IMG/VR virus record: IMGVR_UViG_3300032247_000928
Location: 1-64,000 of that record
Length of the DNA: 64,000 bases
Reading direction: 5' to 3' (one strand)
DNA from: a virus
Lineage: Duplodnaviria > Caudoviricetes
The position numbers and the translations under genes are program-made. Positions 1,249 through 64,000 of this stretch are shown here, one piece after another; position 1 is the stretch's first letter, and every line of letters begins with the position of its first letter. Below the pieces are notes generated by a model. The model saw nothing but the letters and a program-made list of their open reading frames with translations. It did no database searches and was not told the DNA's origin.

Positions 1249-2280
1249 CTATAGCACCCATTGTGAATTTTTTTTACTCCATAAAACAGTATCCTTAAGA
1301 GAATATTCAGGGGTAACTGGAGGAACCCATCCAAGATTACTTAGTTTTTTACCACTAATAGAGTAATGAGGGTCCCAACCTGGCCTTAAGGGTTCAACAT
1401 CTACATACTCAATAATATTATTATTTTTAATTCCAAGAATATCTGCAATTAAAGATACAAGTTCGTCGTTATAAATTTTTATTTCACCAACAATGTTAAA
1501 TCTTTCTATCTTGTCAACATTATCTTTATACCTATATTTTAAGTCCTTAAACTTTTCAATCAAAAACTTGACAGCATCTGCTTGTGATTTTGCATGCAAA
1601 TAATGTCTGCTTCCAGCAACCCATTCATTATTAATCATATGTGCATGAACTGGGACTACTTTATTTTGCAACAAATAACCAATTGTTTTTGGAATAAATG
1701 CTTGATCTTGTTGTCTTTCTCCAAACATGTTTGTAGAGTTAGTAATTATAATTGGAAGATCATATGTTCTCCAGTATGCGTTTGCTATTGCTTCTTGACC
1801 CATCTTAGATGCTGAGTATGGATTAGAGGGCATTAATGGTTCCCACTCAGAATGTTTTTCATTTTTTTTTGCATCGCCATAAACTTCATCTGTTGAAATT
1901 TGAATGAAACAATCTAATGTATCTAATGTTCTTGCATACTCAAACATAGTTAATGCTAAATTAATATTATTTTGTATAAATGGAACAGGTGTTTTTATTG
2001 ATACATCTACGTGGCAGTGTGATGCATAATTAATTATTGTATTAACTTTTCCAAATTCCGATGCCACAAAATGATCAATTGGTTTAGATAGGTCATGGGC
2101 TATAACTTTTACACGATTCTTTGCTTCTGGCACTTCTTCAAAAACTGTTTTTATCCTTGAATATGATGTTAACTCATTAAAAGAATCTGTTGCAACAAAT
2201 TCCCAATCTGTTGTATTTAGCAAATAAATTAGAGCATGATGGCCTACAAAACCACCTGCTCCAGTAATTAAAACTTTCAT
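1249..2280 (-). CDS. rmlB: dTDP-glucose 4,6-dehydratase-like NAD-dependent epimerase/dehydratase
   Basis: GAGGFVG Rossmann motif, STDEVYG and YSASK catalytic motifs. Start moved to ATG 2280 (MKVLITG); the upstream in-frame extension overlaps a terminator. Confidence 0.88.
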   Translation of the reverse strand: MKVLITGAGGFVGHHALIYLLNTTDWEFVATDSFNELTSYSRIKTVFEEVPEAKNRVKVIAHDLSKPIDHFVASEFGKVNTIINYASHCHVDVSIKTPVPFIQNNINLALTMFEYARTLDTLDCFIQISTDEVYGDAKKNEKHSEWEPLMPSNPYSASKMGQEAIANAYWRTYDLPIIITNSTNMFGERQQDQAFIPKTIGYLLQNKVVPVHAHMINNEWVAGSRHYLHAKSQADAVKFLIEKFKDLKYRYKDNVDKIERFNIVGEIKIYNDELVSLIADILGIKNNNIIEYVDVEPLRPGWDPHYSISGKKLSNLGWVPPVTPEYSLKDTVLWSKKNSQWVL

Positions 2281-2298
2281 ATATTTTAAATAAATGAG

Positions 2299-2326
2299 GG
2301 TGGGGAGATAAAAGTATCCCCCCACC
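2299..2326 (-). terminator. Intrinsic terminator after the S-layer-like gene
   Basis: Hairpin GGTGGGGGGATA-CTTT-TATCTCCCCACC on the minus strand just past the stop at 2336, followed by a T-rich tail. Confidence 0.7.
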
Positions 2327-2335
2327 AACACATAT

Positions 2336-6875: not shown

Positions 6876-8339
6876 TTATCCTATATCTCTAATAATTTTA
6901 ATTATTTCTTTATGATTTAAATATGATTTTTCTTCTTCTATAAAAATCATAGAATTAATAATTATATCTGCATTATCTTTCATGCCCTGTCCAGAAAAAC
7001 TATATTCTTGCAAAATTGCATCATTATCAAATAAATTAAGACCAGCCATGACAACAATAAAATTAGTAGCATTAAACATAGCATAGTTAGAATCACCAAT
7101 AAAATCTTCTTTAATTGGAAGTTTGGTTTTCCATTTTTCTAAATTATTTTTTAAAGAATCTGGAAGTTCTACATCTAAAATACTTCTCCAAAAATCAGTA
7201 TCGTTTCTTTTTGATAGATAGTGCAACATAATAAAATCTCTAATGTTATCAACAATAGTATCAAAAGATTTATTGTAATCTTTAATAACGTTTTCATCAT
7301 AATTTTGAAGTCTATGCATAAGCAAGAAACTTTGTTGAATTGTTAGGCCAATTGATGTTGCCTCTAGTGGCTCAAAAAAACATCCACTTAGACCCATTGC
7401 AACACAATTTTTTGTCCAAACATTTTCTAATGCACCTGGATCAAATTCAAAAGTTTTTCCAATTTCTATTGTATGTCCAAGTTCTTTTTCTATTTCTAGT
7501 TTTGCTTTTTCAGCAGTAATGAAGTTTTTATCATAAATATAACCATTGCCATGTCTTCCCCAGGTTGGGATCTTGAATCTCCATCCTGCATCCATTGCTT
7601 TTGCCAGTGTCCAAAAATTATAATTATCTTCGTCTGCTGTTGGAAATGTAATTGCAGAATTTAATTTTAAGTACTTACTATAAGATTTCCATTTAACATT
7701 TAACTTATTCATTAAAATTCTTTTAAATCCAGTTGCATCTATGTAAAAGTCGCTCTTATATTCAGAATTTTCTCCAATTATAAAATCAATAAAACCATTT
7801 TCGTCTAACTTAACATCTAAAATATCATCATCAAAAACTTTAATACCTTTTTCAATTGCTTTCTTTTTTAAAAAATCATTTAATTTAAAAGTATTAAAAT
7901 GATATTGATTTGTTTCTGGTGTATTATTTATGTCTATTGCTCTAGTGGCTATTATTTTATTGTTTAAAATTGAGTTTGAATAAAGATAGTTTGAATTTTC
8001 AGATATTTGCTTACCGTATACATATGTGTATTGGCCTATTGTATTGCTAAATGGAGGAACAACAGTATGTAAATATTTTTTATCTTGTATCCAATTATCA
8101 AACATAACTCCTATTTTAAAAGTAGCATCACATTCTTTAACAATTTCACTACCAGTAATTCCAACAAAATCCATAAATGATTTAAAATGTTCTGTTGATC
8201 CTTCACCTACACCAACAATTCCAACTTTTGAAGAATATACTATACTAACATCTAAGCTACTGCGTTCTTTTAAAATTAATGCAGATATTAGTCCAGCGGT
8301 ACCACCGCCAACAACAGTTAAACTTTTTACATTTCTCAT
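6876..8339 (-). CDS. Flavin-dependent halogenase (tryptophan halogenase/PrnA family)
   Basis: GGGTAG FAD motif, VGEGST, ATFK (catalytic Lys position), GWRFKIP (WxWxIP variant), FFEPLEATSIG. Start taken at ATG 8339. Confidence 0.88.
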   Translation of the reverse strand: MRNVKSLTVVGGGTAGLISALILKERSSLDVSIVYSSKVGIVGVGEGSTEHFKSFMDFVGITGSEIVKECDATFKIGVMFDNWIQDKKYLHTVVPPFSNTIGQYTYVYGKQISENSNYLYSNSILNNKIIATRAIDINNTPETNQYHFNTFKLNDFLKKKAIEKGIKVFDDDILDVKLDENGFIDFIIGENSEYKSDFYIDATGFKRILMNKLNVKWKSYSKYLKLNSAITFPTADEDNYNFWTLAKAMDAGWRFKIPTWGRHGNGYIYDKNFITAEKAKLEIEKELGHTIEIGKTFEFDPGALENVWTKNCVAMGLSGCFFEPLEATSIGLTIQQSFLLMHRLQNYDENVIKDYNKSFDTIVDNIRDFIMLHYLSKRNDTDFWRSILDVELPDSLKNNLEKWKTKLPIKEDFIGDSNYAMFNATNFIVVMAGLNLFDNDAILQEYSFSGQGMKDNADIIINSMIFIEEEKSYLNHKEIIKIIRDIG

Positions 8340-8929
8340 ATTTTCTTTACTCCCATTGCCATTCCCCAATTGTTAATTGCCCAGTGCCCGATTCCGCAAG
8401 CATCTGCAACATCATTGTCTGTAATCATTTTATCATATACTGTATTAATAAACTTAATTGTTCTTTCTTTTCTTAGGTTACGCTCATAGGTTTTATACCA
8501 TGAAACAGATTTACCAGGATGTTTTGCACGAATATAAAGTTGTTCATCTTTTGATATCTTCTTATTTCCAATGTAGTTCTGCCATGTAATTGGAGATACT
8601 TTTCCAAAGGTATCAATACCAGATAAACCTGCAGCACCAAGGAGTGCTCCTTGCACAAGAGCAAGATCAGCAGCAGTCTTAGGACTATTCATGAAAACGG
8701 TATGCTCAATAACTATGGCATCAACCATATTAAACTGATCAAATAATCCTTTTGTTTTTTTACATGCGTCTGCTACTTTTTCATAGATATCATTACCGCT
8801 AAAATTAATTTTTCCTATTGTTCCAAGATTTTTAAATGAGTAAAAAGCAAAAGCAAGACTATTAGTACTAGCATCAATTGCACAAATATTATTTGGTTGC
8901 ACTGGTCCGCCCCACTTAGTCTTGTTCAT
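8336..8929 (-). CDS. ruvC: RuvC-like Holliday junction resolvase
   Basis: AIDASTNSLAFA, IVIEHTVF and DVADACGIG acidic catalytic motifs. Confidence 0.8.
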   Translation of the reverse strand: MNKTKWGGPVQPNNICAIDASTNSLAFAFYSFKNLGTIGKINFSGNDIYEKVADACKKTKGLFDQFNMVDAIVIEHTVFMNSPKTAADLALVQGALLGAAGLSGIDTFGKVSPITWQNYIGNKKISKDEQLYIRAKHPGKSVSWYKTYERNLRKERTIKFINTVYDKMITDNDVADACGIGHWAINNWGMAMGVKKI

Positions 8930-15100: not shown

Positions 15101-15423
15101 AGGTTTTCCAAACCTTCTTGGTTCTTAGCAAGAAGAACTATGTGGAAATAGTTAACATCAAGTGGACCTACCCTTTCGGACTTATCCCTTTTATCATGTC
15201 TATCTAATGCCAAATAACCTTCTATGCCAAGAATTGGTTTGATGCCCTTTGCTTTTGCAATACGGTGCAGTTCCCTATGCCCAGATAAAGTTCCGTGGTC
15301 AGTAATGGCAATTGCTGTCATTCCTAACTCAACTGCACGGTCAATGTATTCTTCTGGAGTAGCAACACCATCCATCAATGAATAGTGTGTATGGACGTGT
15401 AGAGCAACATAGTTATTAGCCAT
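12145..15423 (-). CDS. dnaE: DNA polymerase III alpha subunit (C family)
   Basis: PHP domain (HVHTHYSLMDG, TDHG), GRGSAAGS, FPDIDSD, GIHAAGV, KIDALGL, GYSFNKSHAVAY, C-terminal OB fold. No intein. Confidence 0.97.
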   Translation of the reverse strand: MANNYVALHVHTHYSLMDGVATPEEYIDRAVELGMTAIAITDHGTLSGHRELHRIAKAKGIKPILGIEGYLALDRHDKRDKSERVGPLDVNYFHIVLLAKNQEGLENLNKLNEIAWTDGFYRKPRIDFEVLDKYGDGIIALSACQGGLIAKAIENEEYAFAKEKVQWFKNRFKDDFYIELMPHNPKNINDELVALAKAFDVKVVVTPDCHHADTSQKEIQEMMLLLNTHGKVLKESTFDKSKKIDNMMERLDYLYGEDRQMSFRTFDIHLISYEEMNIAMAEQGHTDEEMFTSSLEIADKIEEYDIKSGLDLLPVQYKNPDKELKDLALQGLKERKVDSQEYLDRLDEELTIIKDKKFGPYFLVVRNMLNWAKKEEIMVGPGRGSAAGSLLCYALGITDIDPIKHGLLFFRFINPERNDFPDIDSDIQDNRRDEVKDYLVRQYRHVASIATFMQFKDKNIVKDVSRVLSIPLADANKVNKQIDTWDEYCSSKSAAWFREKYPEVEVYGEQLRGRIKGTGIHAAGVVTSKDPIFRYAPMETRSVAGQDERIPVVAVDMGEAENIGLIKIDALGLKTLTVLKDCIDIIKEREGTKIDPLKINMDDANVYTMLSDGYTKGVFQCEAAPYTNLLIKMRVKNLEELAASNALVRPGAMNTIGKDYIAIKHGRQNPDYKHQILKSFTEETYGCILYQEQVMQACVHLGGMSMSEADKVRKIIGKKKDAKEFDVFKDKFVSGASAYISPNKALDLWHDFEAHAGYSFNKSHAVAYSTLSYWTAWLKYHYPLEFMYSLLKNEKDKDARTEYLIEAKRMGISIKLPHINESDIDFKIEGKGIRFGLSGIKFISDKIAERYMAARPFKSYAELEEFTFTKGNGVNSRALQALRIIGAATFEDSQRNDQEIKENLYEYLNLPEFNMTVPQHYYAYIQESEDYEEVGSFVMLGMIKSVKRGKGWSRVEFLDKTGSVGIFDDENTTIETGKTYLILVSDNRIVNAIPADSIKESKDALVKFLNYKQLPYKGEEQFVVSFKPRMTKAGKKMANLVVADAGRELHSVLVFPTAFSKAYMTIEEGNVYKVSLGKTKDGTVILEDVVNV

Positions 15424-16166
15424 TAATTAAAATCTTTCTTATTCCAGTATAACTTTTTATATCCACCTGAAAAAAATGACTTAACATTAAAAACTTGCTG
15501 ATTAACTTCATTTAAAGTTTTATTTTTTAATTGCATTTTTTCTGATTTCCAAGATTCTCTTTTAATTGGAATTATCTGATACATTGGAGTTCCTTTTGGT
15601 ATTAATCCAGAAAAATCTTCCTTTATAAAAAATCCGACTTTTCCACCCAAAAAATATTTATCTGAATCAATTATTCCAGAAAAACATTTAAAAGGTAGAT
15701 CATCCCTATTAAGTGGATGAGTAATTAATGCACTATATCCTTTTGGTAAAATTGGGTTCCAAACTCTAGACCAATGAAAAAAAGCATTTTTATCAAAACC
15801 AATTGGTACTGGTATTTTTGCTAGTCCAACTTTTGACCTAGTAGATATTATTGGACTTGCTTCATCTACTGATGTAGAATAATGAAAAAATATTTCATCA
15901 TCTTTACGTTCAATAAAAATATCGCACCAGGTTTCTTGAATATATCCAGACACTAATGTATCTAAAAATGGCATACACTTTTTTACAGTTGTATTTGGAA
16001 TGCCTGGCTCTTCAAAAAATAGATCATTAGTGTATGAATTACTTTTACTATTAAAAAAAGAGCCAGACTCCTTGTACCAATTTGGTAAATAAAATTTTGC
16101 TGGTTTTGGCATAGGTACAATTTCTTGTACAACATTGCTACTAGCAACAAAATTAATTTTTTTCAA
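15423..16166 (-). CDS. Degenerate dUTPase-like family protein, paralog 1
   Basis: KKCMPFLD..VSGY, PKGYSALITHPLNR.DLPF, SGIIDSDKY, IPKGTPMYQIIPIKR; the same motifs recur at 20964, 58070 and 63522. Confidence 0.7.
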   Translation of the reverse strand: MKKINFVASSNVVQEIVPMPKPAKFYLPNWYKESGSFFNSKSNSYTNDLFFEEPGIPNTTVKKCMPFLDTLVSGYIQETWCDIFIERKDDEIFFHYSTSVDEASPIISTRSKVGLAKIPVPIGFDKNAFFHWSRVWNPILPKGYSALITHPLNRDDLPFKCFSGIIDSDKYFLGGKVGFFIKEDFSGLIPKGTPMYQIIPIKRESWKSEKMQLKNKTLNEVNQQVFNVKSFFSGGYKKLYWNKKDFN

Positions 16167-20963: not shown

Positions 20964-21683
20964 TTATTCAAAGCGCATGCCTTGTCTATACCCCTTTTTA
21001 TAATGAGACATGGGAACAGACTCTTTTTCTTGAATAAGTTCTACCTTTTTATTAAAAAACCTTTGATCATCATTAATAGTATGATTCCAATCTTCACGTT
21101 TTATTGGAATGATTGAAAGAAGTGGAGTTCCAGCCTTGATTAATCCCTCAAAGTTATCTTTGATATGAAAACTAACATTTCCTGGAAGAGGATAAACATC
21201 ATAGTCGGCAAGTCCAGATACTGTTGTAAATGGCAAATCATATCTATTTATTGGGTGTGTTATTAGTGCTGACCAACCTTCTGGCATTTGAATACCCCAA
21301 TGCATTTGCCAACCAAAATGCGCCTGATAGTGTCCATGTGGAACTGGCATCTCTTTAAGAACTCTGTCTCCTGCTGGCTCCATCGGAGAATCCCAAGATA
21401 GTTTAGGAATATTATTTTTATCTATTAATACATGAATATCTGTATGCAATAGGTAATGATAGCCACATGTCATCGCATCATAGTATGGCATACAATGTTT
21501 CATGCTAAGAAAAACATTTGATCTGCTTGCTGTTCCATCTTTAAATTTTTCATAATCATTTTCGCCATGAAACCTTGGCATATTTTTCCAATAGTCTGGC
21601 AAGTTATCTCTTGCTGGTGTTGGAGAAATGGATGACTCTTTGGCTCCTTGTCCCCATGGATAAAACTGAATTACATTACTCAC
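20964..21683 (-). CDS. Degenerate dUTPase-like family protein, paralog 2
   Basis: KHCMPYYDAMTCGY, PEGWSALITHPINR.DLPF, SGLADYDVY, IKAGTPLLSIIPIKR. Confidence 0.7.
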   Translation of the reverse strand: MSNVIQFYPWGQGAKESSISPTPARDNLPDYWKNMPRFHGENDYEKFKDGTASRSNVFLSMKHCMPYYDAMTCGYHYLLHTDIHVLIDKNNIPKLSWDSPMEPAGDRVLKEMPVPHGHYQAHFGWQMHWGIQMPEGWSALITHPINRYDLPFTTVSGLADYDVYPLPGNVSFHIKDNFEGLIKAGTPLLSIIPIKREDWNHTINDDQRFFNKKVELIQEKESVPMSHYKKGYRQGMRFE

Positions 21684-22743
21684 TTAGACTTCTTTCTAAA
21701 TCATACAGCATTCTTCCTGCTGGATATTTATTGCCAGTTTCTTCTACCATCTTATACATTTCTGAATAAAATTTTTTGTAATTTAATCCAGATGCTTTTT
21801 CGTATTCTTCAATTAATTCTACTGATGGTGAGCCATATTCTCCAAGAACTTTTCCAGTTAAAATTTCTTTGTTTCTTAATGTACCAGAAACAACTTTATC
21901 TTTAAACGATATTCCATTTTCATCTGTTTCAAGATATGTTTGTTTCCATGAATTAGGAACATCTCTTCCCATTGAGTTAACGTCCCTTGTCCAAAGCACA
22001 TGATCTTTAATATTAAAAATTTTATATCCTCTTGTCCATGCTAATAGTGCAATTGCATTTTCTTCGTGGTAAGCAAGCATTGGATCATATTTAACATCTT
22101 TAATAAAAGATCCAGAAGTAAATAAAAAATGTCCAGATATTAAATAATGTTCTTCATAGCCTAGTTCATTATAGTTTGCAGTCTTTGCACCAGGGGAATC
22201 TAGGGCCTCAATGCCGTAAGCAAATGATAGATACTTTTCTTCATTTTCTATCCCTAAAGCCTCTGGATGGCTCTTGGAGACAAGAGACCAAGATGGATAA
22301 TCTGCTTCCCAGTTATTGTCCTTAACCATTGTAGTCTTTTCTCCAGTGTTCTTATCCCTATAATAGTAAGGAACATATGAAGATATGATTGGTTTTTCAT
22401 ATACCGTTTTTAATTTAACATAATTCTGTTTTAATGTTTTGTCCCAGTTATTTTTAAATACTGTATGCCCATCAATTTGCAAATAGTACTCTTCTTCTTT
22501 ATAGAATGTTGATGCTAACATTCTGCTCATGCCTACACCAAGGCCAATTTTCTCACTTATATTAACAAAATCTACATTTTTATATTTACTTAGATCTGGG
22601 AAATTTTTTTTTGGATAATGCAAAACAACACCAATATAAATATTATCAGGATTTTCTGCTTTAGAAAAAGCAGTATCTATGGTGTCAATAATATCTTCTT
22701 CGTTATAGGCTGCAATACCAATAAAAATTGAATCTTGTTTCAT
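21676..22743 (-). CDS. GT60-like (Skp1-hydroxyproline GlcNAc-transferase type) glycosyltransferase, paralog 1
   Basis: IFIGIAAYNE..II.TI..AFSKAENPDNIYIGVV N-terminus, YYLQIDGHTVF (DxH), SGHFLF, EE..IALLAWTRGY. Confidence 0.75.
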   Translation of the reverse strand: MKQDSIFIGIAAYNEEDIIDTIDTAFSKAENPDNIYIGVVLHYPKKNFPDLSKYKNVDFVNISEKIGLGVGMSRMLASTFYKEEEYYLQIDGHTVFKNNWDKTLKQNYVKLKTVYEKPIISSYVPYYYRDKNTGEKTTMVKDNNWEADYPSWSLVSKSHPEALGIENEEKYLSFAYGIEALDSPGAKTANYNELGYEEHYLISGHFLFTSGSFIKDVKYDPMLAYHEENAIALLAWTRGYKIFNIKDHVLWTRDVNSMGRDVPNSWKQTYLETDENGISFKDKVVSGTLRNKEILTGKVLGEYGSPSVELIEEYEKASGLNYKKFYSEMYKMVEETGNKYPAGRMLYDLERSLSE

Positions 22744-22746
22744 TAA

Positions 22747-22974
22747 TTACCATTTACCTAATGGACAATTTGATGATTCTATTTTTGTTTTTACTTGCAT
22801 AAAACATCCACATTTTTTGCATTGAGTTGTTAATTTAATAAATTCTGGACAACTTTGGCAAATTAAAAATCTTTTTTCTGCATCAAAATCATTAATTTTT
22901 TTTGTTTTTGGGTTCAGCATATCCAGTGGAGTTGAACCATATTTTTCTTTATATTGTTCCCACTTACTTGCCAT
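22747..22974 (-). CDS. Small Cys-rich protein (DUF6171-like)
   Basis: RFLICQSCP...QCKKCGCFM..KTK....CPLGKW. Confidence 0.7.
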   Translation of the reverse strand: MASKWEQYKEKYGSTPLDMLNPKTKKINDFDAEKRFLICQSCPEFIKLTTQCKKCGCFMQVKTKIESSNCPLGKW

Positions 22975-23365
22975 GATAAAAAGGCTCCAAACTTGTTTGA
23001 TCTTGATCTAAAAGTATAAATTTTTCTCCATCAAATTTAGCATTGGGGGAACTTACATATTGTCCATATGGATATAAACCTAAATCTACTACTTGTGGAT
23101 TACTTAATAATATACTGCCAAAATATTCTGAAGTATTAAATTCTTCTAATACCTCTCCATTTTTTAAAAATTGAACAGTTATTCCATTATGGTTTGGATA
23201 ATTATTAGATACATCAATAATTTCATCATATCCTGTAAAAATATCAACATATTTTTTAATTAATGGCAAATCATATAGTGCATCTTGATTAATAACCCAA
23301 CAAAGTGCTCTACCCTGTAAAATTTCATGCTGAGTATATGTTTCTATATCTTCATCATATATCAT
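22964..23365 (-). CDS. Hypothetical protein
   Basis: 133-aa ORF with SD AAGGGG and promoter TGCTACAAT at 23385-23393. Confidence 0.75.
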   Translation of the reverse strand: MIYDEDIETYTQHEILQGRALCWVINQDALYDLPLIKKYVDIFTGYDEIIDVSNNYPNHNGITVQFLKNGEVLEEFNTSEYFGSILLSNPQVVDLGLYPYGQYVSSPNAKFDGEKFILLDQDQTSLEPFYHGK

Positions 23366-23402
23366 AATTTTCCCCTTATTTTATATTGTAGCATATCCTA
23401 AA

Positions 23403-25373
23403 TTAACATGCAACATATGGGCTACAAACTGATCCAGTTCCTCCAGCACACTTTCCTGAACATCCAGGATTACATATACCATTTACAACATTTTGTGATG
23501 TACAAAGTTTAGACGTTGGAGCAGCATAATATGCTGGAGGTGCATAATATACAGGTGGTGCATAATATACAGGAGGTGCATAATATACAGGAGGTGCATA
23601 ATATACAGGAGGTGCATAATATACAGGAGGTGCATAATATACAGGTGGTGCATAATATACAGGTGGTGCATAATAAACTGGAGGAGCATAGTATGATGGA
23701 GGTGCATAATATGTTGGAGGAAGAGATGCCGTAATAGTGTTTGATGTTACGGTTGCAGAAGATCCTGCAGCATTACTTGCATATGCATATGCTTTAAAAA
23801 TATATGGAGGGGTAGTACCATCAAATGTTGTAACTGTGTAAGATACTGAATTTGATGTTGTTGGTGAATTTGTTGCTTTTAATACAGCAAAAGTACTTCC
23901 GTCAGTTCCAGCCTTAATAATAACATTATAAGATGTTGGTGAATTAGACCAATCAGTTGTTGTGGCGGTAATATCTGTTCCTGCTTGTCCACTTCCAGAT
24001 AAAGAAACGGTTCCACCAAATGGAGCATTAAAAGTATAAGTTTGGGTATTTGATGTTGTAGACCATCCATAAGAGTTATAGGCTGTAACAGTACAAGTAT
24101 ATGCTGTATCTGCTGATGTTGTACTTGGCGTATAAGAATCAGTTGTACTAGTTGTAGTATGAGTAACTGTTGGTTGTCCACCAATATCAGTTCTTTGCCA
24201 AGTATAACGGTATTGTGTTGGAGAATTGGTCCAATTTCCAGCAGTCATATATAATGTTCCACCAGAGTAACTAATCATTGAACCACCGCCTGCAACTGGA
24301 ATAACTGTTCCTAATGGAGTAATATCTACATTTGGGAATTGATATGTTGCTGTTGGTGTTGTTTGTGATGGAATTGTTCCTGATCCAGAAAATGCCGTTC
24401 CAGAAAAACCACTAGCAGTATTATATGGAGTAATTAATACACTTATTGAATCTCCTGAATTTCCTGATCCTAAAGAAATAAAGTTTCCAGTTGATGTTGT
24501 ATGTTGGGTTGTTCCACCATTAATAGAATAATCAATTTTATATTGGTTGGCATATGCTGAAGTATCCCATCCAGCAGAAAAAGATCCACCAGTTCCTGCG
24601 GTTCCATAAGCAGTTAATGATGCACTTACAGAAGTTAAAGTAGAAACATTTTTTGTTGGAGTTACAGATCCCGCAGAATAATATGTTTGTGGTGATGTTG
24701 GGGAAGTGTCAGATGGTGTCCAAGAAACAACTAAGTATGAAACATTTGTTAATGATGACCAAGAAAGAGTAAAATCGCCAAACCCACCCGTTGCATCAAC
24801 TGTACCCACTGATGGAGAAAGATTGCCTGTACCCGAAGAAATAGCCTGTACATATCCGTTAGTTAGTGCTGTTGGGTATGGAATTGTAACCGATGTGCTA
24901 TTGCTGCTTTCTTCATTTGTTGTATTATTTACATTTGCTACTGCAGTAACAGAAAAACGATAATATTGAGTATCTGTTACATAGTCTGATTGGTATATAG
25001 TTAATGTTTTTGTTTGACCATTAGATATAGATCCACTTGCTCCAATACTCATCCAATTAATTCCGTCAATTGAATATTCAAACTGATATGTTTCACTTAT
25101 TGTTCCACCACCACCATAGGTCCAAGTTCCATTTGTACCAGTTAAAACAAATCTACCTATGCTTGAAGAAACGGTCCAACTAGCAGCACTTATTGTAGGC
25201 TTTGCATTTATTTGTGGTCCAGTAGTTGATGCTGTTGGCCAAAATTGACTCCAACTTGAAGAACCTTTTATAAACGCTTTAACAATTGTATGCCAGGAAC
25301 CATCATCACCTTTAACAAAAAACCTAGATATTGGACCCCAAGTGCCATTGTCTCTCTTTACAAAATATCCCAT
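23403..25373 (-). CDS. Tail fibre/tip-associated protein: Ig/FN3-like Ser/Thr-rich modules, Pro-Tyr repeat and Cys-rich C-terminus
   Basis: Last gene of the tail-tip run; beta-rich modules (YQFEYS, YRFSVTA, YKIDYS, YRYTWQR), then (PPxYYA)11 and CTSQ...C..C...C.......C.....C. Confidence 0.72.
   Translation of the reverse strand: MGYFVKRDNGTWGPISRFFVKGDDGSWHTIVKAFIKGSSSWSQFWPTASTTGPQINAKPTISAASWTVSSSIGRFVLTGTNGTWTYGGGGTISETYQFEYSIDGINWMSIGASGSISNGQTKTLTIYQSDYVTDTQYYRFSVTAVANVNNTTNEESSNSTSVTIPYPTALTNGYVQAISSGTGNLSPSVGTVDATGGFGDFTLSWSSLTNVSYLVVSWTPSDTSPTSPQTYYSAGSVTPTKNVSTLTSVSASLTAYGTAGTGGSFSAGWDTSAYANQYKIDYSINGGTTQHTTSTGNFISLGSGNSGDSISVLITPYNTASGFSGTAFSGSGTIPSQTTPTATYQFPNVDITPLGTVIPVAGGGSMISYSGGTLYMTAGNWTNSPTQYRYTWQRTDIGGQPTVTHTTTSTTDSYTPSTTSADTAYTCTVTAYNSYGWSTTSNTQTYTFNAPFGGTVSLSGSGQAGTDITATTTDWSNSPTSYNVIIKAGTDGSTFAVLKATNSPTTSNSVSYTVTTFDGTTPPYIFKAYAYASNAAGSSATVTSNTITASLPPTYYAPPSYYAPPVYYAPPVYYAPPVYYAPPVYYAPPVYYAPPVYYAPPVYYAPPVYYAPPAYYAAPTSKLCTSQNVVNGICNPGCSGKCAGGTGSVCSPYVAC
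23524..23721 (-). repeat. 11 tandem 18-bp coding repeats, PP[V/T/S/A]YYA
   Basis: Plus-strand unit GCATAATATACAGG(A/T)GGT recurs every 18 bp from 23524 to 23704: 8 Val units plus single Thr, Ser and Ala variants. Synonymous differences between units support this reading frame. Confidence 0.95.
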
Positions 25374-53836: not shown

Positions 53837-56185
53837 TTATGCCTTGATGTAGGTCTTGCTTACCTTAACAGTAGTATTTGCTGCTGCTGCAGTAACTTGC
53901 ATAAGAACATTGCCTGCTGAATATACAGCATCTGTTATTCCAAGTTGGCCATTGCTTTGTACATCAGCATACTCTGTTACATAAACATTGTTTGATGCAT
54001 CTACGCCAACTAACATTTCAATTACTTCAATGTCTCCACCAGTATTCTTCATTTGTACTACATACTTAGCAGCAGTATATGTTGTTGCTGAGAATGTGTC
54101 AATTGTAGTTGCTGAAGTTCCTGCAACTGCTGTTGCAGAACCTGTAAGAGTATCAGCAAAACCTACTGATGTTGCTAATGCTGCACCAAGAGTTGGTGTA
54201 ACAAGAGTTGGGCTATTTGAAAATACTAGTGTGCTTGTTCCTGTTTCATCAGTTAAAGCTGCTGCAAGGTTTGCAGAAGATGGTGTTGCAAGGAATGTTG
54301 CTACACCAGATCCAAGACCAGAGATACCAGAAGATACTGGCAAACCAGTTGCATTTGTAAGTGTTGCAGAAGAAGGTGTTCCAAGTGCTCCACCATTTGT
54401 AACAAATGCTCCTGCTGAACCAACATTTACTCCAAGTGCTGTAGAAACTCCTGTACCCAAGCCTGAAATACCAGTTGATACTGGAAGTCCAGTTGCATTT
54501 GTAAGAACACCAGATGCTGGAGTTCCAAGCGCTGGTGTAGTTAATACTGGGCTAGTAAGTGTCTTGTTTGTAAGTGTTTGTGCTGTTGAAAGATCTACAG
54601 TTACTGATGTATCAATTGAAAGTGTATTTCCTGACTTTGAAATACCAGTTCCTGCTGTAACTTGACCTAAGCCAGTAAACTGTGTGAAAGTAAGAGCTGT
54701 GGTTCCAATTGTAATTGCACCATTATTTGTTAATGTCCAACCAGAATCTGCGTTTACAGTTCCTTCTTCAACAAATACTGCAAGTGAAGGAGTTACTTCT
54801 GCTGCTGCGTCTGCATCTGTTGAACGAGTTGGTGCACCTGTTGCATTAACGGTATAAATACCATTTTCAGCACCTGATGCCTGATTCTTAACAAGAATTC
54901 TATTTCCAGTTGCAAGTGTTACTCCATCAATTACAGATCCATTAGCAAATGCTGATGAAAGAGTTCCAGAAGTAGTTGTTGCTGCACGTACTGAAGCTTT
55001 CCAGTCAATTCCCTGAGCTGCTGAATCAACATATGCTTTTGTTGATGCATCTGAATCATTTACTGGTGTTGGAACTGTTACAGTTCCTGTAAATGTTGGA
55101 GAATTAAGTGGAGCTCTTGATGTATCTGTAGCATGTACGTGATCTGCACGAGCAGCTGTTGTTCCTGTACCAATTGCAGCAGTTCCATCCATTGATGGAG
55201 TTGTTGAGCTTAATCCAGTGATGCTGTTAAATGATGTACCTGTTGCAACACCAATATTTGGAGTTACAAATGTTGGGCTGTTAGTAAATGCAACTGTTGA
55301 AGTTCCTGACTCATCTGTAAGTGCTGTTGCTAGATTTGCAGATGTTGGAGTTGCAAGAAATGCTGCTACGCCTGTACCAAGACCAGATACACCAGTTGAA
55401 ATTGGAAGACCTGTTGCGTTTGTTAATGTTCCGCTTGAAGGTGTACCTAATGCTCCGCCATTTACAACTACAGCGCCAGCAGAGCCAACGTTTGTTGCAA
55501 GAGCAGTAGCAACGTTAGTTCCAAGTCCTGAAACACCTGTGCTAATTGGCAAACCAGTAGCATTTGTAAGTGTAGCCGAAGATGGTGTTCCAAGTGCTGG
55601 TGATGTTAATGTAGGTGATGTTAAAGTCTTATTTGTAAGTGTTTGTGTTCCAGAAAGTGTGGCAACTACTGTTGTATCTAATGTAATTGTATTTGCTGGG
55701 TCATTATATGTAAAACCAGTACCCAATATATTACCAACTGCATCCTGTGCTCTTTCATCTGTAAAGTAAAGGTTTGTACCTTCTGAAAGTGCTGTTGTTG
55801 ATGAAGGAATATCTGAAGTAAATGCCACTGTTCCTGAAGCATCTTTAAGTGTAATTGTGCGATCAGCAGTTGGGTCTGTTACTGCAAGAGTTGTCTGATA
55901 TGAATCTGTTGTTGCACCTTCAAATTCAATGCTTGTACCAAAAACACCAACTGCTTGTGGGGCTGCCCACTTAATACCATTGGTTGCACTTGAATCTGCT
56001 GTAAGAATATAATTATTAGTTCCTACTGCTAAACGAGCAACTGCATCGTCTGCACTTCCTACTAGTAAATCACCTTTAGCATCAATTGTGCCTGCAGTGA
56101 TTACATTTTTTCCGTTGACAGTCGCAGTTGTACCTTCAACTACCAGTCCTGCCTTTACTCTAAAATCTTTTGTTACTGTTGCCAT
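53837..56185 (-). CDS. Long fibre protein with a duplicated ~120-aa shaft block
   Basis: [11 protein letters not shown]-terminus; four [19 protein letters not shown] units; central [11 protein letters not shown]...[16 protein letters not shown]...ENGIY module. Confidence 0.8.
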
Positions 56186-56201
56186 TTTTATATCTCCTTA
56201 G

Positions 56202-56648
56202 TTAGGCCTTTAGACCAATACGCAAATAGCGCAAGGTTATCGGGGTTTGCCCACCTACAGGAACTACAGTTAGTGAAACTGTATCCCCTGCTCTAGACAC
56301 GGAGATGGTGCCAATATTCCCATCATTGTCTACTGTTCCATATTCACTGACGTTTACGTTTGTAGCATCAGGGACTATGGTTAATTCTGTTGCGTAGTAC
56401 TTATTTGCACCACCAGCAGTTTTTTTGATTGAGACCATGTACTTAACTGATCTCCATTCACTGGCAAGGAAGTTATCAAAAATTGTTGAATTTTCAATGC
56501 CGTTGATAGTTACTTCATTATTACCATCAGAACCTAAGTCTGTTGATCTCGCAGAAGTGCTGTCAATCAAATCTTCATAATCTGCTTGACTTGGACGGTC
56601 ACCTGTTTGGAAAAGGGACTTGATACTCGTGATTGATAACTTAGCCAT
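56202..56648 (-). CDS. Virion protein sharing a C-terminal domain with 53837-56185
   Basis: D.F....(W/Y).(S/A).KY.V..K...VSEYG/VTEYA pattern; leaderless (ATG 6 nt after TGATATAAT at 56655-56663). Confidence 0.7.
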   Translation of the reverse strand: MAKLSITSIKSLFQTGDRPSQADYEDLIDSTSARSTDLGSDGNNEVTINGIENSTIFDNFLASEWRSVKYMVSIKKTAGGANKYYATELTIVPDATNVNVSEYGTVDNDGNIGTISVSRAGDTVSLTVVPVGGQTPITLRYLRIGLKA

Positions 56649-56669
56649 GTTTGTATTATATCATGCATT

Positions 56670-56891
56670 TTAAAGTATATAGTTAGATAATCCAATAATC
56701 TGAAGTGGAATTGCTGGTATATTGGCAATAGATGTTGGTATCTGTATTGTTGTAAATCTTATTCTAAAAGGTAAAACTGAATTTATCTTTACCCCATGAT
56801 TTTGTTGTATGATCTCTGTATTTGGAAAAAAGACTCTTTCAATATTTTTTGTAAAAACTGGGGTATTGTTATTTATAGCAACTGTCGCCAT
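56670..56891 (-). CDS. Hypothetical protein (73 aa)
   Basis: Start overlaps the stop of the upstream gene (TAATG). Confidence 0.7.
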   Translation of the reverse strand: MATVAINNNTPVFTKNIERVFFPNTEIIQQNHGVKINSVLPFRIRFTTIQIPTSIANIPAIPLQIIGLSNYIL

Positions 56892-57304
56892 TAGTTTGTA
56901 ACATCCTCAAGGAGAGTAATCTTCCCTTGAGCAACTGTCCAAACAAGTGTGTTTTGTGGAAGACTAATTTCAATATCAAAAATATCATTTGTTCTTAGTA
57001 ATGAAGTTTGGTATGCAGATAGTTTTACTTTAAACTCACCTCTACCATCCTCTAAATCTTGCTGTGGGTTAGTACTAAAAATTAAAGTTGCATCATCAGT
57101 AATTATTTGAGGATCAACTGGTGTATTTGGTCTTTTAAAGTCTATCTTAATATGCCAATCAGGAATAACCAAAGGCTGCTTTGCATCGTCTGTAAGATAA
57201 ACCATAAAGGAAACTGTGTCCCCTTTTACAATTGTCCAATTGACAAATGGTGGTTTTTCACCAATATCATATGTATTTGCGCCTTGCCCTCTATATGTAG
57301 CCAT
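56891..57304 (-). CDS. BppU-N-like Ig-fold virion protein, paralog 1
   Basis: WTIVKGDTVSF...GEFKVKLSAYQTSLL...DIEI...WTVAQGKITLLEDVT; similar to 61708-62121. Confidence 0.6.
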   Translation of the reverse strand: MATYRGQGANTYDIGEKPPFVNWTIVKGDTVSFMVYLTDDAKQPLVIPDWHIKIDFKRPNTPVDPQIITDDATLIFSTNPQQDLEDGRGEFKVKLSAYQTSLLRTNDIFDIEISLPQNTLVWTVAQGKITLLEDVTN

Positions 57305-57342
57305 AGTTCTTTTATTATATCATATAAGTAATGCTATATTTT

Positions 57343-57358
57343 GTTATCAAAACGTTAT
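57343..57358. promoter_or_regulatory. GTTAT-N6-GTTAT direct-repeat box (copy 1)
   Basis: TTGTTATCAAAACGTTATAA lies between divergent promoters; a near-identical copy is at 62317-62336. Confidence 0.45.
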
Positions 57359-57410
57359 AATTGTATCTTGGTACAAAACGGACATTAATTTGTACTTATG
57401 AGTAGAATAG

Positions 57411-57419
57411 TGCTATACT
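57411..57419 (+). promoter_or_regulatory. Extended -10 promoter (TGCTATACT) for the transglycosylase gene
   Basis: Followed at the predicted +1 by hairpin TGAGACCT-AAAA-AGGTCTCA (57425-57444) and SD AGGAGG. Confidence 0.68.
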
Positions 57420-57468
57420 TAATTTGAGACCTAAAAAGGTCTCATTCGTTTCTTAGGAGGTAAAAACT

Positions 57469-58011
57469 ATGAGAGAAACAAAAGTGTGGTTAGGGGTAAT
57501 GTTATTGGTGGTATCGTCTGCTGTTTTTGCAAACAATGCTAATGCCATTAATAATAAAATACTAAGTACATCTGCTTTGGATGAAACTACCGCCCATAAA
57601 GCGGTTTTTTTGGTTTCTAAGGAAGAAATATTAAAAAAGTATGAAAATGCAGCAACTCTTTCAGATAAAGATTTGGCCGTGATGCTTAAGGCAGTAGGGT
57701 TTAAAGGTAATGATCTAAAAGAAGCTTGGGCAATAGCAAAACGTGAATCTAACGGGCAACCAATTAGATTTAACGGTAATAAAAAAACTGGAGATAGTTC
57801 TTATGGACTTTTTCAGATTAACATGATCAGAGATTTAGGTCCAGAACGTCGTGAGAAGTTTAACCTTAGAACAAATTCTGATTTATTAAATCCAGTAGTA
57901 AATGCAAAAATAGCATTTTATATGAGCGATGGTGGTAAGAACTGGACTGCTTGGCATGGTTTAACGGCAAGGGCCAAGATGTGGATTGAGAAGTTCCCAC
58001 ATAACATTTAG
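57469..58011 (+). CDS. Secreted lysozyme-like/lytic transglycosylase (SLT/Rpf-like)
   Basis: Signal peptide, then AWAIAKRESNG (catalytic Glu), SYGLFQINM, NPVVNAKIA...GGKNWTAW. Confidence 0.85.
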   Translation: MRETKVWLGVMLLVVSSAVFANNANAINNKILSTSALDETTAHKAVFLVSKEEILKKYENAATLSDKDLAVMLKAVGFKGNDLKEAWAIAKRESNGQPIRFNGNKKTGDSSYGLFQINMIRDLGPERREKFNLRTNSDLLNPVVNAKIAFYMSDGGKNWTAWHGLTARAKMWIEKFPHNI

Positions 58012-58020
58012 TTATAAATA

Positions 58021-58060
58021 AAAAATCCCCCTTGGCTATATGCCTTGGGGGTATTTTTTT
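58021..58060. terminator. Bidirectional terminator between convergent genes
   Basis: A5-T-CCCCC-TT-GGC-TATAT-GCC-TT-GGGGG-TA-T7. Confidence 0.72.
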
Positions 58061-58069
58061 ATATATTTT

Positions 58070-58810
58070 TTAGTTATATTGTTTTTTATCCCAAAACATA
58101 GTCTTATATTTATCAAAAAACTTTGTATTTAATTTTATTTTTGTTTGCAAAATGTTTTCAATATCATTTTTATTGCCAATAACAGTTTCCCAACTATCTC
58201 TTTTGAAAGGAATAACCTGAGCAATTGGTGTTCCTTTTGGAATAATTCCTTCAAAATCTGGATCATTAACCACAAAAGGAAAATTAACTGGATTAGGATA
58301 TCTATCTGTGTCTACAATACCAGGAAGTATAGTAAATATAGATTCTCTATGCATTGGTTGAATAAATAATGAGGAGTATCCCTTTGGAGTTTGAATACCC
58401 CAAGGATTTATCCATTTTGGATAGGGAAATTCATTTTTTGCTGGATGATTTGGAGCCTGAGCAATTGGATGAAAATCAATTAAACTAAACCAAGACCAAA
58501 TAAAATGTTGTTGTTTTTCTAAACTATGATCTTGTGTCAAATCAATATTATTTAATTTTTCTTTTTCTACTTGTCTTGGAGAGATATATATATCTGCTGG
58601 TGACTCAATTATATATCCTGAAGTAATTGCATCAAAAACTGGAATACATTTTTTTATTGTAGAAGGAGTACTTCCATCGTCAAATGGTTTTTTTTCGTTG
58701 TCAACATAAGACTTAGTTTGCTTATACCAATCTGGAACATATCTTGATGCTGGTTTTGGTGGCTCTAAGTCCCTATAATCACTTACATTTGTAAAAATAA
58801 TTTTTTTCAT
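58070..58810 (-). CDS. Degenerate dUTPase-like family protein, paralog 3
   Basis: KKCIPVFDAITSGY, TPKGYSSLFIQPMHR, PGIVDTDRY, IPKGTPIAQVIPFKR; promoter TGATATAAT at 58830-58838. Confidence 0.72.
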   Translation of the reverse strand: MKKIIFTNVSDYRDLEPPKPASRYVPDWYKQTKSYVDNEKKPFDDGSTPSTIKKCIPVFDAITSGYIIESPADIYISPRQVEKEKLNNIDLTQDHSLEKQQHFIWSWFSLIDFHPIAQAPNHPAKNEFPYPKWINPWGIQTPKGYSSLFIQPMHRESIFTILPGIVDTDRYPNPVNFPFVVNDPDFEGIIPKGTPIAQVIPFKRDSWETVIGNKNDIENILQTKIKLNTKFFDKYKTMFWDKKQYN

Positions 58811-58874
58811 TAACTACCCCTTACAAATTATTATATCATAAAGAGTTAATAAAGAAAATAAAACTATATTTTTA

Positions 58875-59480: not shown

Positions 59481-59481
59481 A

Positions 59482-60495: not shown

Positions 60496-60516
60496 GTTAA
60501 ATTATCCTTTTCTTAA

Positions 60517-60843: not shown

Positions 60844-60885
60844 TGTGTGGCTCCTATCTGTATATGTTAGTATTGTATCACATAT

Positions 60886-61620: not shown

Positions 61621-61623
61621 TTA

Positions 61624-62121: not shown

Positions 62122-62141
62122 ATCATTGATTATACCATAAT

Positions 62142-62476: not shown

Positions 62477-63457
62477 TTATTGTATGTTGGCGTAATCACT
62501 TGGAAAAGCACAATAATTATAGTAGGTGTCATCAAAATAAAAATTTGCGTATTCTTGAAATTTTTTTAGTTTTTCTTTGCTTTGCTCATTAGTTAAAAGG
62601 TTGCGTATTCTTTCGGTATTTTCTTTAACAATATCTCTGCCGTATTTTTTTTGTATATCTAGCAGATTTTTTCTTTCTCCAATACCATCAACTATATCCT
62701 GTGTATGTAAATGACTAATTACAGCCAACTCTCCAGGATAAACTAAAGTAAATCCGTTGTGTAATAGTTCCGATGTTTGCCAAATTTCTTCTTCATAAAA
62801 TAATGTATTTTCATCTAAATGTCTATTTTCTGCAAATAAATTATTTCCAAATATAAAAGCACCGCAAACTTTTGCTGCAGGAAGAATTTCTTCTTTTAAA
62901 AGCCTATCCTTTAATTTTTTTGATACTTCCGAAGGGTATGCATGACCAAATAGAGGAAATCTGCCATCACATACCCAAGTACTTTTATCAAACCAGATGT
63001 TATACCCAAGCACTTGCCTAAATAATATTTCCTCATATTCTCCTTGATCATTTTTTTTGTATGTGTAGTGTGCTGGTGTGCCCGTTAGTAGCAATTTATT
63101 ATTTTTTAATTTTTTTACCGCATACTCGTGTTTTTGTATAAGATACTCGTCCCAGGCATTAATAAATCTTGAGTGTGAATCAATCTGCAAAATATATTCT
63201 TCTTTGTTATAAAAACTTATTGGTAATTTTTTCCCAATACCAGTACCTATGTGATTTTTATAGTTATGAAATGATATTTTTACGTGTGTGTTATCTTTAA
63301 ACTCTTCTATTACTTTTTTATAATAGTCCTTTTCGCCAATAATGGCAATACCTAAAAATATTTTATCGGGATTATTTGCATTATTTATACAAGACTTTAT
63401 GGTGGGTATTAGTTCGGTGTCTCCACCAAAACAAGGAATTGATACAAAAATTGACAT
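62477..63457 (-). CDS. GT60-like glycosyltransferase, paralog 2
   Basis: IFVSIPCF.GD.EL..TI.SCINNANNPDKIFLGI, YILQIDSHSRF, GAFIFG, YEEEIWQT. Leaderless (ATG 6 nt after TGATACAAT at 63464-63472). Confidence 0.78.
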   Translation of the reverse strand: MSIFVSIPCFGGDTELIPTIKSCINNANNPDKIFLGIAIIGEKDYYKKVIEEFKDNTHVKISFHNYKNHIGTGIGKKLPISFYNKEEYILQIDSHSRFINAWDEYLIQKHEYAVKKLKNNKLLLTGTPAHYTYKKNDQGEYEEILFRQVLGYNIWFDKSTWVCDGRFPLFGHAYPSEVSKKLKDRLLKEEILPAAKVCGAFIFGNNLFAENRHLDENTLFYEEEIWQTSELLHNGFTLVYPGELAVISHLHTQDIVDGIGERKNLLDIQKKYGRDIVKENTERIRNLLTNEQSKEKLKKFQEYANFYFDDTYYNYCAFPSDYANIQ

Positions 63458-63521: not shown

Positions 63522-64000
63522 ATGAAAATAAAAAAAATACAAGAGATTTTGTTTTATCCAGTAAATGAACAAGCAGCATTGTATATTGATCCTCCATTAC
63601 CATCTTCTAATTTTATTCCAGAGTGGTACAAAAAAATACCTAAATATAAAGATAGATCAAATAAATTTAGAAATTATGGAATAGGTGATAATAATTTAAG
63701 TGTAAAGTCATGTCTTCCTATTGTTGATTCTTTAACTTCTGGATACATGATAAGTTTGCCACACGATATACAAATTTCAAGAGATAATAGTAATTTGGCT
63801 CCAATAATAAACTGGTCTTTTTCTGTTAATGGTTTACCTGATTTTATAAATTCAAGACCAAATAGAGATGATAGTTGTGCCTGGGATAATATTGATGGAT
63901 ATGATGATTTACTATTTAATTGGCTTCCATTTTGGTGTATTAAAACTCCAAAAGGATACAGTTCATTGTTTTCTCATCCAGTAAATAGACCAGATTTACC
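63522..64000 (+). CDS. Degenerate dUTPase-like family protein, paralog 4 (partial)
   Basis: Not in the ORF track. MKIKKIQEILFYP...PEWYKKIP...SVKSCLPIVDSLTSGY...TPKGYSSLFSHPVNRPDLP runs off the right edge; SD AAGGGA. Confidence 0.85.
   Translation, partial: MKIKKIQEILFYPVNEQAALYIDPPLPSSNFIPEWYKKIPKYKDRSNKFRNYGIGDNNLSVKSCLPIVDSLTSGYMISLPHDIQISRDNSNLAPIINWSFSVNGLPDFINSRPNRDDSCAWDNIDGYDDLLFNWLPFWCIKTPKGYSSLFSHPVNRPDL

Follow-up and report, generated by a model that had tools for sequence, protein, structure and literature searches.

The window analyzed here is the first 64 kb of the 79.9-kb IMG/VR record IMGVR_UViG_3300032247_000928, a tailed-phage genome that is about 73% complete and has a G+C content of about 35%. 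Its tail module ends with a gene for a 656-amino-acid (aa) protein that carries a C-terminal tandem repeat rich in Pro and Tyr, and that gene is followed by a cassette of four genes, one of which encodes a glycosyltransferase (GT) of family GT60. The cassette accompanies such tails in many related contigs, which suggests that its products probably modify the repeat tail. Across these contigs, Tyr repeats go with GT60 and a dUTPase-fold protein and no hydroxylase, and Phe repeats go with hydroxylases. In the reading that we prefer, and to which we give a probability of about 50%, the cassette would be a fiber-tail maturation module, a glycosylation branch that works without a hydroxylase and for which Tyr is the most economical acceptor. 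The observations from which this reading starts are the anatomy of the locus, the family and fold assignments of its products, their co-occurrence and synteny in other phages, and the missing hydroxylase.

The repeat-tailed protein and its four-gene cassette

The 656-aa protein is encoded on the minus strand (23403..25373). The initial annotation described its end as eleven tandem PP[V/T/S/A]YYA units plus a cap with six Cys residues, and counting in the predicted product gave the same result. Residues 552 to 617 (23523..23720) are exactly 11 hexapeptides, of which eight are PPVYYA and one each is PPTYYA, PPSYYA, and PPAYYA; units 1 and 2 contain Thr and Ser. The protein closes with 39 residues that include the six Cys (23406..23522). 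Ser and Thr together make up 34% of the body that precedes the repeats. At the DNA level, Tandem Repeats Finder reported a repeat with a period of 18 nucleotides (nt) at 23524-23712 (10.5 copies, 91% matches, score 294), which is far above chance expectation. Among the open reading frames (ORFs) of the 79.9-kb genome, only this one had a strong aromatic-Pro repeat score.

The gene order on the minus strand is portal, protease, capsid, major tail, tape measure (1837 aa), minor tail (1377 aa), a 918-aa protein with fibronectin type III (fn3) domains, and the 656-aa protein. The label "last tail-tip gene" that had been given to the 656-aa gene is consistent with this order. Four genes lie 3' of it on the same strand, nearly abutting or overlapping. 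After a gap of 37 nt comes an ORF for a 133-aa protein (22964..23365), which is overlapped by 11 nt by the ORF for a 75-aa DUF6171 protein (22747..22974). The ORF for the 355-aa GT60-type GT-A glycosyltransferase (21676..22743) starts 3 nt beyond the DUF6171 ORF and is overlapped by 8 nt by the ORF for a 239-aa dUTPase-fold protein (20964..21683). Beyond the cassette is a replication module with genes for a DnaB-like helicase, primase, polymerase (Pol) III alpha, and RecA. The ORF calls and the Pfam and PHROG matches bore out the ORFs, the coordinates, and each element of what the initial annotation had observed. When the region was compared with 50,697 phage records by blastn, no match was obtained.

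The 355-aa protein matched PF11397 ("GlcNAc", GT60) with an E value of 1.7e-28 and 100.5 bits, against a cut-off of 21, and all 91 of its homologues carry the same domain. Both residues of the D91-x-H93 motif were invariant in an alignment of 24 sequences. In searches of PDB sequences, neither the protein alone nor a profile of 24 sequences gave a useful match. Its AlphaFold2 (AF2) model had a predicted local distance difference test (pLDDT) score of 95, and the top 40 or so PDB matches to that model were all GT27 polypeptide N-acetylgalactosamine (GalNAc)-transferases (best E, 3e-11). The earlier description of the enzyme as GT60-like and related to the mucin-type GalNAc-transferases thus holds, and judged by its PF11397 match, its invariant D-x-H, and its closest solved folds, the GT is of the protein-directed (polypeptide) type.

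The 239-aa protein matched phrog_7084, and its AF2 model had a pLDDT of 89. The best 23 of 48,161 PDB representatives were all dUTPases or dCTP deaminases, with Z scores from 9.1 to 4.7, and the next row had a Z score of 2.9. The top VIA-align row (Z 9.1) aligned 129 residues with a root mean square deviation of 3.3; Foldseek gave probabilities of 0.97 to 1.0, yet E values of only about 1e-3. The label "dUTPase-like paralog" is correct at the level of the fold, which is the dUTPase jelly roll, and the genome encodes four such paralogs. PF00692 had no match at E ≤ 1 anywhere in the genome, and a PDB sequence search with the 239-aa protein gave no useful match. The family alignment retains a motif-III-like G-x-x-D-x-D and a motif-IV-like G-T-P...I-P as its only conserved dUTPase motifs and lacks the Gly-rich C-terminal motif V. 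Because PF00692 was unmatched and catalytic motifs were missing, we set aside a canonical dUTPase function. Across 33 to 77% identity, 22 positions of the family are invariant and another 23 are nearly so, among them K62, C64, D69, H143, R147, D160, D162, and R196, with the Lys-x-Cys pair invariant, and because of this pattern the family looks enzyme-like.

Several comparisons identify the 239-aa protein as a remote member of the DUF6065 superfamily. The PF19541 (DUF6065) model did not match the protein itself, and its best match in the genome was in a paralog, at 58139-58345 (E 0.03, 9 bits). Comparison by hhalign with a DUF6065 alignment seeded by a bona fide member (PF19541 E, 2.8e-34) gave 96.6% probability and an E value of 6.9e-10. 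An iterated search joined the DUF6065 and dUTPase-fold groups, and template modeling (TM) scores to DUF6065 clusters in the Atlas were 0.66 to 0.72. A profile scan of genome contigs with DUF6065 found only phage-like contigs binned into metagenome-assembled genomes (MAGs) and no bacterial context.

Although the initial annotation missed the point, the dUTPase-fold gene is a regular member of the cassette. It was adjacent to the GT gene in 15 of 15 cases in the GT clade of the Tyr-type loci and was the most constant partner in the cassette. The 8-nt overlap with the GT gene recurs in three relatives (L005, L006, and L011), and P0100 is a natural fusion of the GT to a dUTPase-fold domain. From the translational overlap and this fusion, we read the dUTPase-fold protein as a likely obligate partner of the GT. 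A complex prediction for the two proteins scored 0.00, which, having been made without controls, weighs neither way on binding.

The 75-aa protein matched PF19668 (DUF6171; 32 bits, cut-off 27, E 1.7e-7) and phrog_13558 (E 1.9e-16). The consensus of 26 sequences has six conserved Cys in the pattern C-x2-C...C-x2-C-x-C...C-P-x-x-K-W. Across loci, a cap with at least four Cys co-occurred with DUF6171 (29/7 versus 9/56; the loci are not independent). This association of DUF6171 with the Cys cap points to a function in cap folding or in metal loading. The 133-aa protein, which is encoded between the repeat protein and DUF6171, had no Pfam, PHROG, or Atlas match and was assigned to no family; homologues hold the same position in L005, L011, L018, L022, and L028.

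Co-occurrence of the cassette with aromatic-proline tails

We tested the association in both directions. In the forward direction, 76 IMG/VR loci were fetched by GT60 homology. In about 15 distinct loci of this GT60-selected set, the gene directly upstream of the DUF6171/GT block ended in tandem aromatic-Pro units of various types (YYAPP, QYYAAP, YHAP, PTYFAPE, PNFP, PPSFAV, and PPVFT), followed in most cases by a small Cys-rich cap. Homologous proteins with fn3, repeat, and cap segments lie upstream of the cassette in many loci. In the reverse direction, a metagenome scan with the YYA[A/P]P-repeat DNA pattern alone gave 96 loci. Of the 20 low-GC, phage-like loci that extended for 1.3 kb or more beyond the repeat gene, 18 had GT60 just downstream of it; the other 2 had two PF13640 genes in place of GT60. 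Two viral scans with Tyr patterns matched cassette contigs only; the strict one of the two, for YYAPP, found the nearest relative alone. The proposal in the initial annotation of a functional link between the Pro-rich tail and the GT60 gene is therefore supported by positive co-occurrence in both directions.

The reverse scan also provided a useful negative control, since the high-GC soil contigs with YYAPP repeats had no cassette gene beside the repeat proteins. With a looser repeat detector, high-GC loci showed a cassette-family match in 1 case of 18, or 2 of 9. Soil bacteria with 60 to 70% G+C (among L216-L311, e.g., L217, L221, and L238) encode many small YYAPP- or GYYAPP-repeat proteins. 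A natural control came from homologues of the fn3 body, which were found irrespective of repeat or GT. The cassette was present in 4 of 4 homologues with repeats and in 0 of 4 without them.

In a tree of the GTs, all 14 Tyr-type loci formed one clade with a Shimodaira-Hasegawa-like approximate likelihood ratio test (SH-aLRT) value of 99 and identities down to 39%. This clade spans myovirus and siphovirus contexts, and the cassette trails the repeat gene even where the flanking structural genes differ. In L006 and L016, it lies between structural genes, away from replication genes.

The initial annotation had also suggested that repeat number is variable. Five proteins (L230, L244, L250, L252, and L268) have the same last 25 residues, which form the Cys cap, and contain from 9 to 21 QYYAAP units, so repeat number changes fast between near-identical phages. 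This range supports a length-variable stalk.

Not all relatives end in the small Cys-rich cap. In some, the Tyr-Pro repeat is followed by Gly-Gly-Gly-Cys and a domain of about 150 residues that ends in His-Asn (L001:4356-5876, L008:3075-4439, L010:8471-9982, and L012:1-2421). This domain, which replaces the cap in L001 and L008-L010, is called Hint-like (Hint/intein) here on the basis of sub-threshold Pfam matches only; such ends would be self-cleaving or self-ligating. Two of the Hint-ended proteins have PASTA domains, a hint of Gram-positive hosts and a peptidoglycan-exposed location.

Hydroxylases, repeat type, and the acceptor residue

The initial annotation saw no prolyl hydroxylase in the window. 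A wider search extended this to the whole 79.9-kb record, in which neither the Pfam model nor a hidden Markov model (HMM) built from 97 cassette oxygenases found a PF13640 oxygenase, and there was no tandem array of 2-oxoglutarate (2OG)-Fe(II) dioxygenases. Of five large records from this phage's GT clade, four likewise lacked PF13640; the fifth had a single match, 78 kb from its cassette. Of the 14 Tyr-type cassettes, 13 lacked PF13640 and one (L017) had such a gene within the cassette. The absence from this record and from four of the five clade records tells against the hydroxyproline-type step that had been proposed for this phage.

Hydroxylation combined with GT60 is plausible for sister cassettes only. 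Many of these have PF13640 oxygenases beside GT60 and DUF6171, and all nine that were tested exceeded the Pfam cut-off. In P0138, PF13640 and GT60 are fused, and a further PF13640 gene and DUF6171 lie ahead of the fusion. On two short contigs (L003:46-2417 and L004:2-2599), genes for DUF6171, a 234-aa PF13640 oxygenase, and a 555-aa PF13640-GT60 fusion stand in a row, a compact version of a hydroxylase and glycosyltransferase cassette.

The Phe-type loci were collected by a scan with (FFPP)3 only, which gave at least 120 IMG/VR loci, 112 of them with a repeat ORF among the matches listed. Among these 112, PF13640-like genes were present in 84, DUF6065 in 63, DUF6171 in 32, and GT60 in 5. The PF13640 genes lay downstream of the repeat gene in 83 of the 84 listed loci, at a median gap of 350 bp and in up to about 10 copies, and dUTPase-fold/DUF6065 genes alternate with them one-to-one. 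Where Phe-repeat loci did have GT60, hydroxylases were also present in six of seven. The (FFPP)n proteins (L092-L211, e.g., L093, L110, and L130; L313-L316) come after a fiber gene with a conserved end motif (...TPGLKLR..WSSATL.KR...W...GDL.A), and some of their loci were binned into Bacteroidota and Verrucomicrobiota MAGs.

From the anatomy of the locus and comparative genomics, which underlie all our functional statements, we infer the tail as substrate, the acceptor residue, the sugar, and the roles of the three non-GT proteins, as follows. The last tail protein would end in a stiff, polyproline-II-type stalk of PPxYYA units that is shut by a six-Cys knot. The rise of a polyproline-II helix is 3.1 Å per residue, and the 66-residue stalk would be about 20 nm long if fully extended. 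The four-gene cassette, which travels with aromatic-proline tails, would work on them inside the infected cell, ahead of assembly. The retaining GT-A transferase of family GT60 would put a sugar on tail hydroxyls with no prior hydroxylation of proline; by family precedent, the sugar would be N-acetylhexosamine (HexNAc) from a uridine diphosphate (UDP)-sugar. The dUTPase-fold protein may handle a uridine nucleotide or present the substrate, and DUF6171 probably helps to fold the Cys cap or to load it with metal.

The case for Tyr comes from the repeats themselves. Several units in the Tyr clade (QYYAAP, YHAP, and APYYAPYV) contain no Ser or Thr, and because Tyr is the only hydroxyl residue common to all repeat types of the GT clade, Tyr-O-glycosylation is the most economical model of the acceptor. 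O-glycosylation of Tyr has a bacterial precedent in S-layer proteins (PMC2943079). More broadly, the two kinds of tail could be variants of one modular system of hydroxyl supply. In Phe-type tails, banks of oxygenases would make the hydroxyl that the GT needs; in Tyr-type tails, the hydroxyl is already encoded, and GT60 with its dUTPase-fold partner would O-glycosylate Tyr with the oxygenases dispensed with. We offer this wider scheme tentatively, as a possibility that is more likely wrong than right. If it is true, it means a cytoplasmic Tyr-O-HexNAc modification of a virion protein and a first function for DUF6065 and DUF6171.

A number of points weigh against the maturation module as we read it. 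Raw Fisher tests of repeat type versus enzyme content gave values of 5e-9 and 1e-6, but relatedness inflates the counts: crude clustering left 25 clusters, for which P was 0.03 to 0.09. (Single-linkage clustering of the repeat proteins put 60 of 101 in one cluster because the fn3 segment ahead of the repeat is conserved.) In addition, the combination of Tyr repeats, GT60, and no hydroxylase belongs to one clade, and thus reflects a single event that was long kept rather than repeated convergence. Given the relatedness of the loci and the single event behind the Tyr pattern, the Fisher values are descriptive and are not probabilities. Several other clades of phage GT60 have no Pro-rich protein within 10 kb, so the link between GT60 and tails is specific to certain clades. 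The known acceptors of GT60 are Hyp and Thr, not Tyr, and the body with its 34% Ser and Thr, together with the Thr and Ser in the first two units, makes classical O-glycosylation an alternative. With only about 73% of the genome in the record, a hydroxylase gene could be located in the portion that is lacking. Four dUTPase-fold copies, one of them beside a DNA polymerase gene, fit poorly with a purely fiber-linked role. Finally, Iyer et al. in 2010 interpreted the related arrays of cyanophage Syn9 as clusters for secondary metabolites (PMC2938197).

In one competing explanation, the GT might add sugars to Ser and Thr of the body, the cap, or other virion proteins, in which case the repeat would be a spacer, and its linkage to the cassette would come from the location of both where the tail module ends. 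In addition to the Ser and Thr residues just mentioned, this explanation draws on the Ser/Thr GalNAc-transferases as the closest solved folds, on the phage-encoded GTs that are said to act on virion proteins in mycobacteriophages, and on a second GT60 gene that lies beside a fiber-like block without a repeat protein. We consider it unlikely, since many of the clients are small fn3-repeat-cap proteins of 150 to 250 aa that offer little else to modify, fn3 homologues without repeats have no cassette, and the cassette stays with the repeat gene though the flanking structural genes change. The original hydroxyproline model, in which the repeat prolines are 4-hydroxylated by an enzyme encoded either by the host or in the part of the phage genome that the record lacks and GT60 then adds HexNAc to hydroxyproline (Hyp), as in the Skp1 pathway and in the hydroxyproline-rich glycoproteins of plants, seems to us quite unlikely. 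It agrees with the membership of the GT in the family of the Skp1 Hyp N-acetylglucosamine (GlcNAc)-transferase (PF11397; PMC3515798 and PMC11570480), with the pairing of PF13640 with GT60 and DUF6171 in sister cassettes, including the P0138 fusion, with the PF13640 gene in the Tyr-type cassette of L017, and with the incompleteness of the record. Its difficulties are the 13 of 14 Tyr-clade cassettes without PF13640 and the absence of this gene from both this record and the four other large clade records, apart from the sole match 78 kb off the cassette; the loss of one randomly placed gene through incompleteness in all five genomes would be an event of about 0.1%.

Alternatively, the target may not be a fiber at all: the cassette could tailor a small molecule or peptide, as was proposed for the Syn9 neighborhood, or modify DNA or the host envelope. 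The window does encode a tryptophan-halogenase homologue and a sugar-nucleotide epimerase/dehydratase, the dUTPase fold is one that binds nucleotides, the Pol III alpha gene has a paralog directly beside it, and the replication module borders the cassette. We nevertheless find such a target decidedly improbable, given a linkage to repeat-tailed proteins that was tight and oriented whichever way the search was run, the polypeptide-type fold of the GT, a cassette without a scaffold-building enzyme, and the rarity of halogenase homologues in related loci (two besides the window's own). DNA glycosylation in particular was set aside as unlikely because no thymidylate-synthase-like (hydroxymethylase) or TET/JBP gene was found in the genome, because the GT has a polypeptide-type fold, and because relatives such as L006 and L016 hold the cassette among structural genes, away from replication genes. 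It is very unlikely, in our view, that the dUTPase-fold, DUF6171, and 133-aa proteins are noncatalytic assembly factors (trimerization or folding chaperones) and that the GT, whatever its target, is the sole enzyme. dUTPases and fibers are both trimeric, the dUTPase-fold family lacks a PF00692 match and a segment like the C-terminal motif V, DUF6171 tracks the presence of the cap, and genes for fiber chaperones usually lie 3' of fiber genes; yet the invariant and nearly invariant positions of the dUTPase-fold family look enzyme-like, and in the Phe-type arrays its members alternate with oxygenases, one for one.

Other copies in the genome and comparison with known systems

The cassette families recur elsewhere in the genome, which has four dUTPase-fold genes, two DUF6171 genes, and two GT60 genes. 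The second dUTPase-fold paralog (247 aa; 15423..16166, minus strand; HMM E, 4e-74) sits between a gene for a 217-aa protein and the Pol III alpha gene, which it abuts. In L005, the closest relative, these two genes adjoin directly, so the paralog looks like a recent insertion or duplication. A second fiber-like block (53837-64000 of the window and 64001-65528 of the genome) encodes a 782-aa protein, a Gly-rich fn3 protein of 337 aa, and others; no aromatic-proline repeat protein was found in it. This block is flanked by the third dUTPase-fold paralog (246 aa; 58070..58810, minus strand; found by HMM), the second GT60 gene (326 aa; 62477..63457, minus strand; PF11397 E, 3.6e-23; HMM E, 4e-33), the fourth dUTPase-fold paralog (63522..64000, plus strand, continuing to 64262 outside the window; found by HMM), and, beyond the window, the second DUF6171 gene (65331-65528 of the genome). 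The halogenase homologue (6876..8369, minus strand; PF04820, E 1e-91), the NAD-dependent sugar-nucleotide epimerase/dehydratase (1249..2331, minus strand; PF16363/PF01370), and other ORFs of the window were considered as companions of the cassette and rejected because they do not travel with it in the flanks examined.

To our knowledge, few cases of phage-encoded modification of a phage's own virion proteins have been described, and we know of no substrate that has been assigned to the 2OG oxygenase, GT60, and dUTPase-fold genes of aquatic phages since they were noticed in 2010. The locus and its relatives name a concrete candidate, a tail of about 100 residues, and they provide a natural experiment in which Tyr tails with a glycosyltransferase and no hydroxylase can be set against Phe tails with hydroxylases. 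If our reading is true, it means a new way to build and tune receptor-contacting structures, with stalk length set by repeat number and surface chemistry by sugars; it would also extend GT60 chemistry beyond eukaryotes and give DUF6065 and DUF6171 their first functions. We found no description in the literature of aromatic-proline fiber tails with this cassette, nor of Phe-type repeats with PF13640 arrays. New from this window are the hydroxylase-free Tyr/GT60 branch, the fusion of GT and dUTPase fold, the link between Cys cap and DUF6171, and the assignment of the partner protein to a fold and superfamily.

The nearest enzymatic parallel is the Skp1 pathway of Dictyostelium and Toxoplasma, in which the prolyl 4-hydroxylase PhyA acts with Gnt1, a CAZy GT60 enzyme (PMC3515798 and PMC11570480). 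Both systems have a PF11397 enzyme with a D-x-H motif that is soluble and cytoplasmic and acts, in the phage by our proposal, on protein, and the sister phage cassettes, with PF13640 adjacent or fused to the GT, share the two-step logic. In contrast to Skp1, this phage's record has no hydroxylase (nor have four of the five large clade records), the client would be a repetitive virion tail instead of one Pro of an E3-ligase subunit, the dUTPase-fold and DUF6171 partners have no counterpart, and the acceptor is possibly Tyr. The tandem dioxygenase neighborhood of Syn9 was described as encoding a dUTPase-fold protein with a conserved Cys and tryptophan halogenases (Iyer, Abhiman, de Souza, and Aravind, 2010; PMC2938197). 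The four dUTPase-fold genes with their invariant C64 and the halogenase homologue resemble it, the Syn9 protein being compared by description only, whereas this genome has no dioxygenases and does have GT60 and DUF6171. Iyer et al. named no protein substrate for Syn9 (PMC2938197); here, the repeat-tailed fiber protein is a linked candidate. With the Phe-type systems, this locus shares a homologous fn3-repeat protein (with or without a cap) after the fiber gene, DUF6065/dUTPase-fold and DUF6171 partners, and an oriented gene order. It differs in having Tyr repeats, no oxygenases, and a constant GT60, whereas the Phe-type systems have FFPP or PPxF repeats, up to about 10 oxygenases, and GT60 in 5 of the 112 loci among the matches listed.

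The likeness to plant extensins and proline-rich proteins (PRPs) lies in the repeats only. The feature of tandem Pro-rich units with Tyr is present (11 × PPxYYA); like the PPVYK type, these are short Pro-Pro-Val-Tyr units that would favor a polyproline-II rod with Tyr available for cross-links. Unlike the plant proteins, the 656-aa protein has no SPPP(P) motif of the Ser-Pro(3-5) arabinosylation type and thus no Ser-Pro4, and there is no secretory pathway, hydroxylase, or arabinosyl- or galactosyltransferase.

Mycobacteriophage GTs are said, in work by Freeman et al. from 2023, to glycosylate virion proteins (capsid and tail tube), with C-terminal extensions as acceptors. Those phages, chlorovirus PBCV-1, and, if our proposal holds, this phage would share the principle that a virus encodes the enzymes which act on its own structural proteins inside the host cytoplasm; the GT families and clients differ, and the other viruses have no aromatic-proline stalk, dUTPase-fold partner, or DUF6171. 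The prolyl 4-hydroxylase of PBCV-1 is active on Pro-rich repeat peptides, and Hyp has never been detected in its virions (PMC7019647). Bacterial S-layers offer the parallel of an O-glycosidic bond between sugar and Tyr on a surface-display protein, which is what we propose for the tail; there, glycan assembly takes place on a lipid carrier, and an oligosaccharyltransferase carries out the transfer outside the membrane (PMC2943079), whereas here a soluble GT-A enzyme would do the work.

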